NCBI GenBank assembly: GCA_965221165.1
Contig: CBDCRP010000003.1
Location: forward strand, 707,735-771,734
Reading direction: 5' to 3'
From: a bacterium
GTDB lineage: Bacteria > UBA8248
Length of the DNA stretch: 64,000 nt
Position numbers and translations under genes: made by a program. Every line of letters begins with the position of its first letter. Within the stretch, counting starts at the first letter, position 1. A model generated the notes under the pieces. The model saw nothing but the letters and a program-made list of their open reading frames with translations. It was not told the DNA's origin and ran no database searches. Below are positions 7,069 through 18,291 of this stretch, piece by piece.

Positions 7069-7383
7069 ATGGCCGTCACCGCAATCGTCCGTTTCCCGTT
7101 TCCTGAAGAAAAAAGCGAGGAGGAGCTGGTTGCTGGTTTCGAGAGTTCGTCGGCCCTCTACCGCGATGTACCGGGCCTCTTGCGTAAATACTATCTGTTG
7201 TCCGAGGACCGGCGGACCGGGGGCGGGGTCTATATCTTCGAATCGCGCGCCGACGCCGAGCGCGTCCATGACGACGTATGGCGCGCCAGGCTGCGCGAGC
7301 GCATGGGAGTCGAGCCCGAGGTCCAATACTTCGACTCGCCCGTCATCGTCGACAACGAAGCCAAGGCCGCTTCCACCGCATAA
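7069..7383 (+). CDS. YdhR-like putative monooxygenase (dimeric alpha/beta barrel), copy 1
   Basis: 104 aa with AAGGAGG 7 nt upstream. The GGGVYIFES motif matches GGIYLF in E. coli YdhR as I remember it. Confidence 0.7.
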   Translation: MAVTAIVRFPFPEEKSEEELVAGFESSSALYRDVPGLLRKYYLLSEDRRTGGGVYIFESRADAERVHDDVWRARLRERMGVEPEVQYFDSPVIVDNEAKAASTA

Positions 7384-7395
7384 GGAGGGTGCTCT

Positions 7396-7713
7396 ATGGC
7401 CGTCACCGCAATCGTCCGCTTCACGCTTCCCGAGGGGAAGACCCACGAGGAGATGGCCGCGGCCTTCGAGAGGTCGGCTCCTCTCTACCGCGACGTGCCG
7501 GGGCTGGTGCGCAAATACTACCTGGTGTCGGACGACGTGCGCACCGGCGGCGGGGTCTATCTGTTCGAGTCGCGCGCCGACGCCGAGCGCCTCTACGACG
7601 ACGCCTGGCGCGCCGGGCTGCGCGAGCGCCTCGGAGTCGAGCCTACGATCGAATACTTCGAATCGCCCGTCATCGTCGACAACGAGGTCGGGGCGATCTC
7701 GACCGCGTCCTAG
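7396..7713 (+). CDS. YdhR-like putative monooxygenase, copy 2 (tandem paralog)
   Basis: 105 aa. The same RBS and the first 23 nt of coding sequence are identical to copy 1 (atggccgtcaccgcaatcgtccg). Confidence 0.7.
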   Translation: MAVTAIVRFTLPEGKTHEEMAAAFERSAPLYRDVPGLVRKYYLVSDDVRTGGGVYLFESRADAERLYDDAWRAGLRERLGVEPTIEYFESPVIVDNEVGAISTAS

Positions 7714-9336: not shown

Positions 9337-10020
9337 TCATCCCGTCGCTCTCGTAAGAATCTCGCGGTAACCCTGGTACACCGCCTCCCCGTAGGCGGGC
9401 GGGGCGTGCACTTCGGTGAGCTTTCCGCCTTCTATCGTCTTATCCGACGCGTATGGGTTGAAGACGGCCTCTCCATCCGGGAAGATGAGGGTGGGACTCG
9501 TCATCGGCAGACCCTCCTCGTCCCTTAAGCGCATGGCTTCCCTGTAATCGTCCATTACCCCTTCTTCAAATACGCCCGATTCCAGGTCCGCGCCCACCCT
9601 GGAGCCATCGAGACCCGCCTCTTCTGCGATCTCGCAAAGAACCGAAACCTCATCCACGCGTCTGCCCTCATAAAAAAAACCGCGCCTGAGCTTCAAATCA
9701 TAGACGCGCGCCTTTACCGGGTCTTGCGCGTATGCGCTCGCGTAGGCCTGAAAGGCAAGCATCGTGGTTCTCAGGTATTCTTCGTGCGGCCAGCTTCGAC
9801 ACGGCGAGAGCGGCTCCTGAACCGCCACCAGGGGCCATTCCTGATCCACGATGTAGCGAGGCGCAGGCCGGTCGTTGATGACTTCCAGCGGGAACGCGCG
9901 CCACTTGAGATGCAGTTTGCCCTCGAAATCCGGCATCACCCTGTCCAGCCGCGCCGCGGCCAGGTATGCCCAGGGTCAATGGTATTCATGAAAAATCTCG
10001 ACAACCGCCATGTTCGTCAT
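9337..10020 (-). CDS. DsbA/FrnE-family thiol oxidoreductase with in-frame TGA (9976..9978) at the first active-site position: candidate selenoprotein (U-P-W-A), alternatively a nonsense pseudogene
   Basis: The track ORF 9337..9939 lacks the active-site strand. The same frame upstream reads MTNMAVVEIFHEYH-TGA-PWAYLAAARLDRVMPDFEGKLHLKWRAFPLE. GAGGG lies 6 nt before the ATG at 10020, and a stop at 10030..10032 closes the frame upstream. Confidence 0.6.
9945..9964 (-). promoter_or_regulatory. SECIS-like hairpin downstream of the UGA in the DsbA-family gene
   Basis: On the minus strand: CCUG-GCCGC [GGC] GCGGC-UGG, with 5 GC pairs extendable by G-U, U-G and C-G pairs. It begins 12 nt after the UGA. 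Folded by eye only. Confidence 0.4.
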
Positions 10021-12754: not shown

Positions 12755-13288
12755 ATGGAGACCGTCATGAAGCGAACCCCTATTTACATCGCCGCCATCG
12801 TCTTTCTCGCCGTGTTCTGGACGTTTTATCAGGCAGGCGCATCGGGGCTCGGACCCGGCGCGCGCGCGCCCGAGCTCAAAGGCGGGCCCTGGCTGGGCGG
12901 CGAACCACTGAAACTCTCGGAATTACGCGGCAAGGTCGTGTTGCTCGACATGTGGACGTTCGCCTGAATCAATTGCGTGCGGGAGATCCCCACGCTGCGC
13001 TCGTGGCACGAGCGATATGAGGACAAGGGGCTGGTCGTCATCGGAAACCACGCGCCCGAGTTCAACTTTGACAAGAAAAAAGCGAACGTGGAAGAAGCCA
13101 TGGCCAAGCTCGGCATCAAATACCGCGTCGTGATGGATAATGAATTCACCAACTGGGACGCCTTTCAAAATCGCTTCTGGCCGACAAAATACCTGATCGA
13201 CAAAAAAGGCGTCGTGCGCTTCAAGACGATTGGAGAGGGCAACCACGCGCGCACCGAGGCGATGATCATGAAACTGCTCGCCGAATGA
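12755..13288 (+). CDS. membrane-anchored TlpA/DipZ-C-terminal-type redoxin with in-frame TGA (12965..12967) at the first Cys of the CxxC motif: candidate selenoprotein (U-I-N-C)
   Basis: Track ORFs 12755..12967 and 12977..13288 are in the same frame. The read-through product is ...LRGKVVLLDMWTFA-U-INCVREIPTLRSWHERYEDKGLVVIGNHAPEFNFD...WPTKYLIDKKGVVRF..GEG, a complete redoxin domain. The second half has no ATG or RBS of its own. Confidence 0.7.
12975..12995 (+). promoter_or_regulatory. SECIS-like hairpin downstream of the UGA in the redoxin gene
   Basis: GCGUG-C-GGG [AGAU] CCC-CACGC: 8 bp with one bulged C. It starts 8 nt after the UGA, and the apical loop lies about 18-21 nt from it. Folded by eye only. 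Confidence 0.45.
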
Positions 13289-14274
13289 TGGAAACCGAAG
13301 AAACGGCGCAACCGGCGAGCACCCCCGCCTATCCCTACTCGTCTCTCTTAAGGATCACCCACTGGCTGAACGTCCCCCTCCTGCTCCTCATGATGGCGAG
13401 CGGGTTTCAGATATGGTGGGCATACCCCGCGTTCGGGCCGGACAGGCCCAACCCGGAGGCCATCTTCGAATCACTGCGGGGCACGGAGGTACAGGCCGAC
13501 CCGCGCGCCATCAACCTGGGCGCCGACTACAGGGTTTTCGTCCAAGGCCTCACGAAAACCTTCGGCATCGGGGAATGGCTCGCGGGCGCGCTGCGCTGGC
13601 ACTTCGCTCTCATGTGGCCCTACACCATCAACGGGCTGATTTTCCTTCTTCTCCTGCTCTTGACGGAGGAAGGGAGGCACTACCGAATAAGGCAGGGAGA
13701 TTTCTCCGGCGCGAAGGAGATGCTCTTACACCCCATCAAAACCTTTCACCATCCTCCCGGAGAGGGAAAATTCAACCCGATACAAAAACTCGCGTACAAC
13801 ACCGTCATACTGGCCGGGGTGATGTCCGTCCTCACGGGTCTCGCCATCCTCAAACCCGTCCAGTTCAAGTGGCTGACCCGGCTTTTCGGGGGCTATCAGC
13901 CGAGCAGATTCCTGCATTTTCTCGTCATGTTGTTTCTCGTCATTTTCATGATCGGCCATTTTCTCATGGTGATATCCCACGGATGGCGGCGAGGGCTTGC
14001 ACCCATGATCGTCGGAATCAAGGCGGAGCGCGACGCTTTTCAGGCCAGACAAAGGCAATTCGCCAAAAATCTCGGCCGCGTAGCCGCCGAGGGAGCGATT
14101 CTGCTGGTTTCCTTTTGGCTCGGAACCCTCATCGCGGATATGATGAACGCAGCCTTGGGCGGCGAGGCATCGGGCGCGTGGTTCGGCGCGCTCGGCTACC
14201 TCTTCGTGCGGGCGGGCCTCATGCGAGGGGGGCGCATCGAAGGCTTTCGCTGGAAGCGAAGCCTCGGGAGTTGA
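13285..14274 (+). CDS. b-type cytochrome membrane protein (Ni/Fe-hydrogenase / thiosulfate-reductase cytochrome b-like)
   Basis: 329 aa with several TM helices. The N-terminal motif LRITHWLN and His residues in the helices match this family. The ATG overlaps the redoxin stop (ATGA at 13285..13288). Confidence 0.75.
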   Translation: MMETEETAQPASTPAYPYSSLLRITHWLNVPLLLLMMASGFQIWWAYPAFGPDRPNPEAIFESLRGTEVQADPRAINLGADYRVFVQGLTKTFGIGEWLAGALRWHFALMWPYTINGLIFLLLLLLTEEGRHYRIRQGDFSGAKEMLLHPIKTFHHPPGEGKFNPIQKLAYNTVILAGVMSVLTGLAILKPVQFKWLTRLFGGYQPSRFLHFLVMLFLVIFMIGHFLMVISHGWRRGLAPMIVGIKAERDAFQARQRQFAKNLGRVAAEGAILLVSFWLGTLIADMMNAALGGEASGAWFGALGYLFVRAGLMRGGRIEGFRWKRSLGS

Positions 14275-14278
14275 GCGA

Positions 14279-14569
14279 ATGAGCACGGAAGAACAAATGG
14301 AATTCATACTGCCGACCAAACTGGCGAAGCGTAGGCTTTTCGTGGGCAGGCTGGTTTTGAGCGTCGTTTGCATCAACGCGCTTCTCTCTCTCCTCGCCGC
14401 ATATCTGCTGAGCGGGCCGATGACCTGGCTAACGCGGTTTGAGTTCGGGTTCCTGGCCTGGGCCTCCATCTTATTCCCGACTTCTCTCGTTCTGGCGGTC
14501 CCGATAATGGCGCCCATCATCATTAAAATACTGAAATCCCCGCCTGCGTCCTCTGAAGAGAGAAGATGA
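14279..14569 (+). CDS. small hydrophobic membrane protein, unknown function
   Basis: 96 aa with 2-3 predicted TM segments. It is wedged between the cytochrome gene (4-nt gap) and the Mo-enzyme gene (4-nt overlap). Confidence 0.5.
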   Translation: MSTEEQMEFILPTKLAKRRLFVGRLVLSVVCINALLSLLAAYLLSGPMTWLTRFEFGFLAWASILFPTSLVLAVPIMAPIIIKILKSPPASSEERR

Positions 14570-15378
14570 AAAAAGGCGAAAAGCGAAACCCAGGCGTTGG
14601 CGTGGACAAGTCTTCATCGTCCCGGCGCGGATTCATGAAAATGCTCCTTGGCCTCGCCTCCGTATTCATGGCCGGGTGTTCCCGCCTGAACGAAGAGCCC
14701 AAGGTGCAGGCCGTCCTCAGTTGGTTCGATCGCCTGAACCACAAGGTGGGCCTCATGACGGACAGCAACCACCGACTGGCGCGCACCTACCCCAGAAGCG
14801 CCGTTCAGCCCGAACAAATGCGGCCCAACGGCTCGGTGGTCTCGCCGAACTCCCAGCTCATCCAGACGCCCCCCGAGAAGTGGCGCCTCGTCGTGGGGGA
14901 AGCCCATCTGCAAAAGGGCCGGATGATGAAAAGACACTGGGCCAGGGAATACACGCTTGCGCAGCTTCGCGAGATGCCCGTTCTCGAGCAGACGGTGGAG
15001 CACGTTTGCGTCGAGGGCTGGAGCGCCATCTGCCACTGGCAGGGAGTGCACCTCGCGCGCTTCATCGAGATGCACAAGCTCAGGCCCGAGAGCCGCTACG
15101 TGTTCTTCCTGTGCGACGACATGCTCGCCACCGCGAACGGGCACGAGCGCTACAGCGTGACGTTCGACTTAAAGCAGGCGATGCACCCGCAGAACGTGCT
15201 GGCGTATGAATACAACGGCGAGACGCTGCCCGTGAACCACGGCGCTCCCATCCGCCTCGCCTCGCCCGCGAACGTGGGCTGGAAGAGCGCGAAATTCCTG
15301 CGCTACGTCTTTTTCACGAACGAGGACCTGGGCGGATTATGGGAGAAGCAGGGGTATCCGCGCTATTATGGATTCTGA
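14566..15378 (+). CDS. molybdopterin-dependent oxidoreductase of the sulfite-oxidase/YedY(MsrP) fold, with Tat signal and lipobox
   Basis: Twin-arginine motif SSRRGFMKM followed by MAGC. Mo-domain motifs VCVEGWSAICHWQGV and NHGAPIRLASP. Confidence 0.85.
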   Translation: MKKGEKRNPGVGVDKSSSSRRGFMKMLLGLASVFMAGCSRLNEEPKVQAVLSWFDRLNHKVGLMTDSNHRLARTYPRSAVQPEQMRPNGSVVSPNSQLIQTPPEKWRLVVGEAHLQKGRMMKRHWAREYTLAQLREMPVLEQTVEHVCVEGWSAICHWQGVHLARFIEMHKLRPESRYVFFLCDDMLATANGHERYSVTFDLKQAMHPQNVLAYEYNGETLPVNHGAPIRLASPANVGWKSAKFLRYVFFTNEDLGGLWEKQGYPRYYGF

Positions 15379-17461: not shown

Positions 17462-17779
17462 CTATCCATCCCCCTGATGGATGGTTCTCAGGTCTCGCTC
17501 GAGATCTTCAAGGTCGTATTGGGCCGGCGCTTTTCTCGCGCGGGCATAATCCGTCATCTCCCACAAGGACACCCCGGCATCGCGAGCGGCCCGCGCGAGC
17601 GTGAGCTTTCCATCCCCGTACAGCCGGACGTAGTGCTCCAGCTTCCATTGCCGGATCGCGCTCGAGAGCAGCCGGCGCACGGTGGTTGAACGATCGGACT
17701 GCTCCACATCCTCGATGAGTTCCAATTCGCGGACCAACTCCAGGGGGAGTCTGGCGCCCACCATCCGTTCTTTCTTCAT
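17462..17779 (-). CDS. UPF0175-family antitoxin (RHH-like N-terminus)
   Basis: I place the start at MKKERMVGARLPLELVRELE. The C-terminal segment LYGDGKLTLARAARDAGVSLWEMTDYA is the UPF0175 pattern. The ATG overlaps the stop of the PIN gene (17776..17779). Confidence 0.7.
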   Translation of the reverse strand: MKKERMVGARLPLELVRELELIEDVEQSDRSTTVRRLLSSAIRQWKLEHYVRLYGDGKLTLARAARDAGVSLWEMTDYARARKAPAQYDLEDLERDLRTIHQGDG

Positions 17780-18291
17780 CTCTTCGCCTCCCGTGCGAGT
17801 CTCAATACTTCCACCACGACGGCCGGGGAGAGCCATAATATCCGAGTGATATCCCGAATCGTGGCCTCGAATTCTCCCAAGTCAAGGTATCCTCGCAAGT
17901 ACGCTTCCAACAATGCGCCGACGGCGCCCAAGTGTTCTACCCCGACCGCCGCGGCCACGCTTCGGGCTTCCTTGTCATCAGCGATCAGTCGCAGGCCCCG
18001 CAGGTCCGCGAGCGCGATGGACTCGGCCTCCCCCCGGTCCAGCCGGGAGCGCCCCATCAGCCGTTGCATCAGGTCTTGCTCCTCGGCGGTCAAGCGCACC
18101 GTCCGCAGCCAGCCGTCTTCCATAGCGGTCTCAAGTTGTTCCACGCCCAGGGCGCGAACAACCCTGCCGGTATCGATTGTCTCCTCCTTCACGACAGCCC
18201 CTATCAGCACCTCGCCGTAGAGTTCGTTCAAGAGTCCCAGACGCCCGAGCTTGGCGAGGACAATCAACGAAGAGGCGTCGGCTACGATCAT
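17776..18291 (-). CDS. DUF3368-type PIN-domain toxin
   Basis: 171 aa: MIVADASSLIVLAKLGRLGLL...DRGEAESIALA...LIADDKEAR. GAAGGAG lies 6 nt upstream of the ATG. Confidence 0.75.
   Translation of the reverse strand: MIVADASSLIVLAKLGRLGLLNELYGEVLIGAVVKEETIDTGRVVRALGVEQLETAMEDGWLRTVRLTAEEQDLMQRLMGRSRLDRGEAESIALADLRGLRLIADDKEARSVAAAVGVEHLGAVGALLEAYLRGYLDLGEFEATIRDITRILWLSPAVVVEVLRLAREAKR

Follow-up and report, generated by a model that had tools for sequence, protein, structure and literature searches.

The window analysed here is a stretch of 64,000 nucleotides from a UBA8248 bacterium (GCA_965221165.1, contig CBDCRP010000003.1), and the gene under study is a redoxin gene on its forward strand that is interrupted by an in-frame TGA. 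Two open reading frames (ORFs) are found at this locus, at 12755..12967 (70 amino acids, aa) and at 12977..13288 (103 aa, with a GTG start). Both lie in the same plus-strand frame, and the only sequence between them is the TGA at 12965..12967, followed by ATC AAT TGC. The gene is split in annotation because gene callers take the UGA as a stop. As a result, the public records examined give a fragment of 98-104 aa, named 'redoxin domain-containing protein', and an orphan ORF of 66-70 aa. A first-pass annotation of the same DNA had already taken the two ORFs as one frame interrupted by TGA, and the read-through translation obtained here is identical to the one quoted there. Very probably, 12767..13288 is a single gene that encodes a predicted exported redoxin in which selenocysteine (Sec) replaces the attacking Cys, giving the active-site motif U-I-N-C. 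The coordinates of the gene, its parts and the surrounding features are collected in Table 1.

Table 1. Features of the redoxin locus and of the related features in the window (positions are those of the window).
Feature	Position	Strand	Remarks
Full gene of the putative selenoprotein, predicted exported redoxin of the DipZ-C/TlpA type	12767..13288	+	173 codons; Sec = codon 67
Signal peptide or signal anchor (predicted, Sec-type export)	12767..12841	+	MKRTPIYIAAIVFLAVFWTFYQAGA; possible cleavage after AGA; read by eye
UGA, putative selenocysteine codon	12965..12967	+	Position of the first (nucleophilic) Cys of CxxC
TGC, second (resolving) Cys of U-I-N-C	12974..12976	+	C74; invariant alignment column
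Hairpin 1	12975..12995	+	GCGUG-C-GGG[AGAU]CCC-CACGC; 8 bp, bulged C, loop AGAU; UGA-to-loop 16 nt
Hairpin 2	12997..13015	+	7-8 bp; GGC triloop closed by U-A; UGA-to-loop 36-37 nt
Cytochrome b561-type membrane protein	13285..14274	+	PF01292, E = 8.6e-17; ATG overlaps redoxin stop (ATGA)
Small membrane protein, 96 aa	14279..14569	+	Two hydrophobic stretches, by eye taken for transmembrane helices
Sulfite-oxidase-family molybdoenzyme, YedY/MsrP-like	14566..15378	+	PF00174, E = 2e-27
DsbA/FrnE-like gene of a putative selenoprotein, motif U-P-W-A	9337..10020	-	PF01323; TGA 9976..9978
Hairpin of the DsbA/FrnE-like gene	9945..9963	-	Single strong hairpin; GGC loop closed by C-G; 20 nt from UGA

The likely start codon is the ATG at 12767 (MKRT...), rather than the alternative ATG upstream at 12755, from which the gene would count 177 codons with Sec as codon 71. 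The ATG at 12767 is preceded by GGAG at 12757..12760, and a Met is present at this position in all full-length relatives; a Met at 12755 is found in only three. The N-terminus, MKRTPIYIAAIVFLAVFWTFYQAGA followed by SG, displays a charged n-region, a hydrophobic core and an AxA-like site when read by eye. The charged and hydrophobic pattern with AGA-S is retained in the relatives despite the divergence of their sequences.

When the TGA is read through, residues 35-164 of the product match the Pfam families AhpC-TSA (PF00578, E = 2.4e-13) and Redoxin (PF08534, E = 9.6e-11), and these matches run across the TGA. Among solved structures, the C-terminal redoxin domain of DipZ from Mycobacterium tuberculosis comes closest (PDB 2HYX/5CYY, E = 1.3e-41, residues 28-175), followed among the PDB matches by ResA, YkuV, TlpA and DsbE. 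The NCBIfam matches to ResA and TlpA are far under the equivalog cutoffs. The protein is therefore not ResA or TlpA proper, and it is placed in the broad TlpA-like superfamily, with the DipZ C-terminal type. Judged from these matches, the read-through product is a thioredoxin-fold thiol-disulfide oxidoreductase of the DipZ C-terminal/TlpA/ResA type. By homology to DipZ-C, TlpA and ResA, it should be an extracytoplasmic disulfide reductase.

Within this fold the TGA occupies the catalytic position. The TGA column holds Cys in all of the aligned Cys homologues (13/13), where the motif reads FWT[FY]xC[IYHS]NC, and the FWAYSCINC of DipZ aligns opposite MWTFA-U-INC. The first-pass annotation had assigned the gene to the TlpA/DipZ-C-type redoxins, with the TGA at the first Cys and the second Cys retained, and had given the motif of the Cys-containing members as FW(A/T)YSCINC. 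All three statements are borne out: the assignment by the DipZ match and the Pfam matches across the TGA, the catalytic position by the alignment, and the motif by DipZ itself.

A stop codon in a redoxin gene could also have arisen by a nonsense mutation from TGC or TGT to TGA, with the gene now decaying. The truncated products of 98-104 aa, which are all that gene callers and public records show, would fit such a pseudogene, as would the lack of any Sec machinery in what was scanned of the window (ARAGORN; Pfam on 10 proteins). The relatives of the gene, however, speak a different language. A protein search returned full-length Cys homologues at 42-59% identity, together with about ten clusters of C-terminal fragments of 97-104 aa at 67-97% identity. 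The DNA around seven of these C-terminal fragments was fetched, which gave 11 loci. In every one of them (11/11) the fragment is preceded by an ORF, 66-99 aa long, that is closed by an in-frame TGA at the same codon, within MWTF[AGS]-TGA-INC[VI]RE. In addition, a DNA pattern specific for the junction was run against 185,579 species-representative genomes and matched 30 stretches. Intact read-through genes are found in 29 of the 30, in genomes labelled Nitrospinota or Nitrospinaceae or in metagenome-assembled genomes (MAGs) labelled 'bacterium'. Orthologues lie, among others, on the chromosomes OZ244799.1, OY843592.1 and OZ253442.1, of roughly 3-4.5 Mb. The last one, L032 from a Treponema MAG, was rejected as a chance match, as there is no ORF at that place. 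Over the loci found by protein and by DNA the consensus of the junction is MWTF[AGST]-U-INC[VI]R.

Altogether, at least 29 species and 40 loci are covered, with 33 distinct gene sequences, and the TGA is invariant in all of them. The 33 sequences contain no extra stops or frameshifts, and the frame relation of the two halves is preserved in every locus. When the window gene was compared with ten relatives, the ratio of nonsynonymous to synonymous divergence (omega, Nei-Gojobori) amounted to 0.07-0.34 for the part ahead of the TGA and to 0.06-0.31 for the part behind it; the pair with L007 is left out of these ranges, as its upstream half had been aligned with a shift of one codon. The synonymous divergence (dS) in these comparisons goes up to saturation, with values up to >2. 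Both halves are under purifying selection. Gene decay in close relatives, which the first-pass annotation had raised as a sign of a nonsense pseudogene, is thus not seen: the 40 loci have an intact read-through frame, the identical TGA and low omega. The relatives are no assembly duplicates either, since they share 67-97% identity and differ in their flanks, and the stop coincides exactly with the codon of the catalytic Cys. From the conserved TGA, the intact frames, the low omega and the saturated dS it follows that the locus is neither a pseudogene nor a pair of unrelated ORFs, and the chance that a decaying gene is nevertheless at hand is practically negligible.

The data also bear on a reading as two genes, in which a small secreted or membrane peptide would be followed by a separate C-terminal thioredoxin-fold protein starting from GTG 12977. 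This GTG does exist and is the start that the gene callers chose. It varies, however, to GTC or ATC in eight loci (L010, L011, L012, L019, L024, L025, L027 and L028), so that there is no conserved start at this position, and inspection of the sequence ahead of it revealed no Shine-Dalgarno sequence. Moreover, the C-terminal part by itself would have neither an export signal nor the first residue of the active site, and the beta-strand ahead of that residue would be missing as well; a frame relation that is constant in every locus is not what two separate genes would predict. Two independent products are accordingly regarded as highly improbable. The first-pass annotation had denied the second half both a ribosome-binding site and an ATG. 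The former statement stands, and to the latter it has to be added that a start codon is present in the form of the unconserved GTG.

Two consecutive hairpins follow the UGA of the redoxin gene (Table 1). Hairpin 1 is the first element in the minimum-free-energy (MFE) fold and reaches -12.1 kcal/mol when folded alone, and the energy of hairpin 2 is -10.3 kcal/mol. Covariation was analysed in an ungapped alignment of 26 distinct 72-nt segments around the UGA. With the two-hairpin structure 95.7% of the cells are in standard pairs, and this share drops to 60% or less once the 3' partners are slid by 1-3 columns. There are 13 cells that have changed on both sides, and none of 500 shuffles (0/500) reached the observed count or the covariation score. 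RNAalifold independently yields both hairpins. In hairpin 1, one pair has switched from G-C to C-G in 7 sequences, through synonymous changes of Val and Pro codons, and another pair from G-C to A-U in 3 sequences. In hairpin 2, the pair 42-54 runs through the series C-G / U-G / U-A and all else is invariant. The formation of this second hairpin depends on a TCG Ser codon, which is invariant in 33/33 Sec forms. In two Cys-form homologues with the same LRSWHE peptide the Ser is encoded by AGC, and hairpin 2 cannot form (n = 2). Chance falls far short of explaining either the conserved TGA or the covariation. The hairpin at 12975..12995 had been pointed out in the first-pass annotation as a SECIS-like structure downstream of the TGA; it folds and carries compensatory changes, but the second and more strongly conserved hairpin at 12997..13015 had been missed.

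The model of the bacterial selenocysteine insertion sequence (bSECIS) prescribes a loop of 3-9 nt, a stem of 4-16 bp, a G within the first two loop positions, a spacing of 16-37 nt from the UGA and an MFE of -7.5 kcal/mol or lower (PMC13188914). A check by hand revealed that hairpins 1 and 2 both fall within these limits. Hairpin 1 is located at the position known from Escherichia coli, and hairpin 2 provides the canonical apex: its U-GGC-A corresponds to the common N1-G-[G/U]-N-N2 apex. Hairpin 2 is a candidate for the SelB-binding apex. The SECIS of the E. coli fdhF type and the bSECIS consensus likewise have a stem-loop that is part of the coding sequence and directly follows the UGA, and the values found here are within the model. 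Unlike in these, there are two adjacent hairpins here, where the canonical N-G-G-N-N' apex lies at 36-37 nt and the proximal loop is AGAU. For the decoding itself, SelB together with Sec-tRNA(Sec) would read the UGA at 12965 as Sec. SelB would be recruited by the SECIS within the coding sequence, which may consist of hairpin 1, hairpin 2 or both.

Several observations weigh against the reading as a Sec codon with a SECIS behind it. The AGAU loop of hairpin 1 has a G followed by A, instead of G or U, and hairpin 2 is situated at the outer limit of the permitted spacing. The fold energy is only mildly unusual, with z = -1.7 and a rank among the top 3% when 4403 coding positions of the window are compared. 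Past the UGA, synonymous-site diversity falls only modestly (0.49 vs 0.64 bits); this drop is given little weight, being partly inflated by the pattern that was used for collecting the sequences. No Rfam family was found at the region, either with gathering thresholds on the window or in E-value mode on 12900..13100. Furthermore, neither the window nor any of the 40 related loci contains a tRNA-Sec according to ARAGORN, and Pfam revealed no SelA, SelB or SelD among 10 proteins of the window (9 ORFs, out of a list with about 35 others, and the read-through DsbA-like product).

The UGA might also be recoded in another way: a tRNA(Sec)-like tRNA(Cys) might insert Cys, or a variant code might assign UGA to Trp or Gly. 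Cys tRNAs of this kind are known from some bacteria, and the Sec at this codon is itself a prediction from sequence. A variant genetic code can be excluded, since TGA is an ordinary terminator that ends about half of the genes in the window. It is the commonest stop there and also terminates the redoxin gene itself (13286..13288), past which no homology is found. The column of the UGA is Cys, not Trp or Gly, and a conserved SECIS-like structure follows the codon. In addition, the lineage has been reported with SelA, SelB and dozens of selenoproteins. One of the orthologues with the TGA, locus L024, belongs to the MAG FO_M_Nitrospinota_01 (GTDB UBA8248), for which BSepDB gives 54 selenoprotein genes; a species needs at least two Sec-pathway genes to be listed (PMC13326102). 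The sponge symbiont 'Nitrospinae' bin107, also of UBA8248, is given with 48 selenoprotein genes, and two UBA8248 genomes, FO_M_Nitrospinota_01 included, are among the most selenoprotein-rich bacteria (PMC13326102). For bin107 the reported counts are SelA = 2 and SelB = 1, and for Nitrospina gracilis 3/211 SelA = 0 (PMC5649159 Table S4). The nearest relatives of the window are MAGs labelled Nitrospinota/Nitrospinaceae or simply 'bacterium', and its G+C content (58.8%) is near the 59.5% given for bin107. A recoding other than Sec is considered very unlikely.

A second gene of this kind, encoding a putative DsbA/FrnE-like selenoprotein, is found on the opposite strand (Table 1). The context of its motif is FHEYH-U-PWAY. 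The U aligns with the first Cys of the CPWC motif of both FrnE and SCO1869; the position of the second Cys is occupied by Ala. In 16 loci, with identities of 63-95%, the same TGA, reading frame and hairpin are preserved, which confirms the second case that had been suspected 3 kb upstream of the redoxin. As an independent gene with a conserved UGA in a Cys column and a GGC-loop hairpin, it lends support to Sec decoding of the redoxin gene as well. Beyond the redoxin and the DsbA-like gene, no convincing TGA-split genes were found in the window, neither among adjacent ORFs of at least 45 codons nor as TGA extensions at gene ends. DsbA-like selenoproteins were included in the Global Ocean Sampling (GOS) survey, among them the forms DsbA 1 UxxC and DsbA 3 UxxV (PMC2398784). 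With these, the gene of the window has in common the PF01323 domain and the Sec at the first Cys of CPWC. It differs in its U-P-W-A, an exact form that is absent from the tables consulted. A GGC apex occurs both in hairpin 2 of the redoxin and in the hairpin of the DsbA-like gene, and this favours a GGC-type SelB recognition motif in the lineage.

Catalogues of selenoproteins with a thioredoxin fold and a UxxC motif go back to the Sargasso Sea and GOS surveys. Among the named UxxC families are the peroxiredoxin (Prx)-like thiol:disulfide oxidoreductase, Prx-like 1 and 3, the Redoxin family protein, the thiol-disulfide isomerase-like protein and DsbA-like forms. By its domain and its motif, the redoxin gene fits the UxxC Prx-like/redoxin class, where the named families were compared by their descriptions. 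Shared with this class are the thioredoxin fold, the AhpC-TSA and Redoxin matches, the Sec at the first Cys of CxxC, the hairpin just after the UGA, the occurrence in marine or symbiont bacteria and the many Cys homologues. The redoxin of the window is distinct in being of the DipZ C-terminal type, with MWTF-x-U-I-N-C, in its predicted signal peptide and its conserved neighbour, a small membrane protein, and in the two consecutive hairpins after the UGA instead of one. For this gene, everything that can be tested by computation for a bacterial selenoprotein was found. The DipZ of M. tuberculosis (Rv2874) has the VIG-H-PEF and YWP-YLID blocks in common with it. However, DipZ has a Cys in place of Sec, and its redoxin forms one protein with a CcdA-like membrane domain, while the redoxin described here stands alone, is predicted to be exported and would contain Sec.

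The comparison with DipZ and its relatives allows a possible mode of action to be outlined. The N-terminal signal peptide would export the protein, which could then reduce disulfides or sulfenates in the periplasm by means of its selenol, as family knowledge suggests. In this reaction the selenolate would be the attacking nucleophile, and the Cys of U-I-N-C (12974..12976) would resolve the resulting intermediate. Recharging might be accomplished by a membrane electron transporter of the CcdA/DsbD type, as is the case for DipZ.

Downstream of the redoxin, three further genes are found on the same strand (Table 1). The first and the third of these, the cytochrome b561-type membrane protein and the molybdoenzyme, form a pair that sits between the redoxin and a tRNA-Asn and is present downstream in most loci of the Sec form. 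For the molybdoenzyme the best NCBIfam match is MsrP (E = 1e-19), with 70.9 bits against a cutoff of 207. This arrangement is similar to that of MsrPQ, a periplasmic repair system with a haem b membrane partner, MsrQ. The molybdenum (Mo) enzyme is, however, under the MsrP cutoff and hence no member of that family, and the membrane partner is a cytochrome b561 of PF01292, whereas MsrQ belongs to the ferric-reductase type of PF01794. The small membrane protein encoded at 14279..14569 has no match in Pfam or NCBIfam. Its sequence contains the motif LPT[RKT]xA[RKQ]RRL...LSG...LF and no conserved Cys. It is found 3' of the redoxin in every Sec-form locus of sufficient length, also in those that have no cytochrome b and Mo-enzyme genes, and the gene call for L005 fuses it with the Mo enzyme. 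ARAGORN also called a tRNA-Pro (GGG) at 14748..14824 on the minus strand, within the coding sequence of the Mo enzyme and opposite to it. The Rfam tRNA model gives no support at this place, and the call is therefore probably a false positive.

The co-transcribed cytochrome b561, small membrane protein and YedY/MsrP-like enzyme might act with the redoxin, and it is plausible, on the weak ground of their arrangement, that these genes serve in the repair of oxidative damage to the cell envelope. The link is not general: in L011, L012, L024, L025, L027 and L028 the cytochrome b and Mo-enzyme genes are absent downstream of the redoxin. In L007, L008 and L026 the cassette has decayed, leaving a Mo-enzyme fragment of about 35-40 aa. 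As the cassette is present, absent or decayed among the relatives, it is in the course of being gained or lost. A more specific proposal can be made that covers both the protein and its SECIS. In this proposal, the Sec-redoxin would be the dedicated periplasmic selenol reductant of an undescribed envelope module that consists of the invariably linked small membrane protein and, in most lineages, also of the cytochrome b561 and the molybdoenzyme. At the same time, the two hairpins would together constitute an atypical SECIS, where the GGC apex binds SelB at 36-37 nt and the covarying proximal hairpin serves as spacer or positioning element. Taken as a whole, this proposal is speculative and rather doubtful.

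For the annotation of such genomes, the two fragments of the redoxin gene are to be merged and marked as a selenoprotein, and likewise the DsbA-like gene 3 kb upstream. This would add a predicted exported DipZ-type redoxin to the selenoproteome of 'Nitrospinota' genomes that are known from MAGs only. The two natural SECIS variants with their common GGC apex could help to refine the models of bacterial SECIS elements. The gene belongs to a known class of selenoproteins, which will not surprise the specialist, and represents no new kind of system.

Some other features of the window were also observed. Between about 42000 and 52000 the G+C content is low (0.48-0.51, compared to about 0.60 elsewhere), and there are no ORFs with a high G+C content at third codon positions (GC3) between 41421 and 51201; this stretch may be a horizontally acquired island. 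At 7069..7383 and 7396..7713 on the plus strand there are tandem paralogous ORFs of about 104 aa that start with MAVTAIVRF...LYRDVPGL. Finally, two slightly overlapping ORFs on the minus strand at 17462..18291, of 171 aa (17776..18291) and 124 aa (17462..17836), look like a VapC/PIN toxin and its antitoxin.

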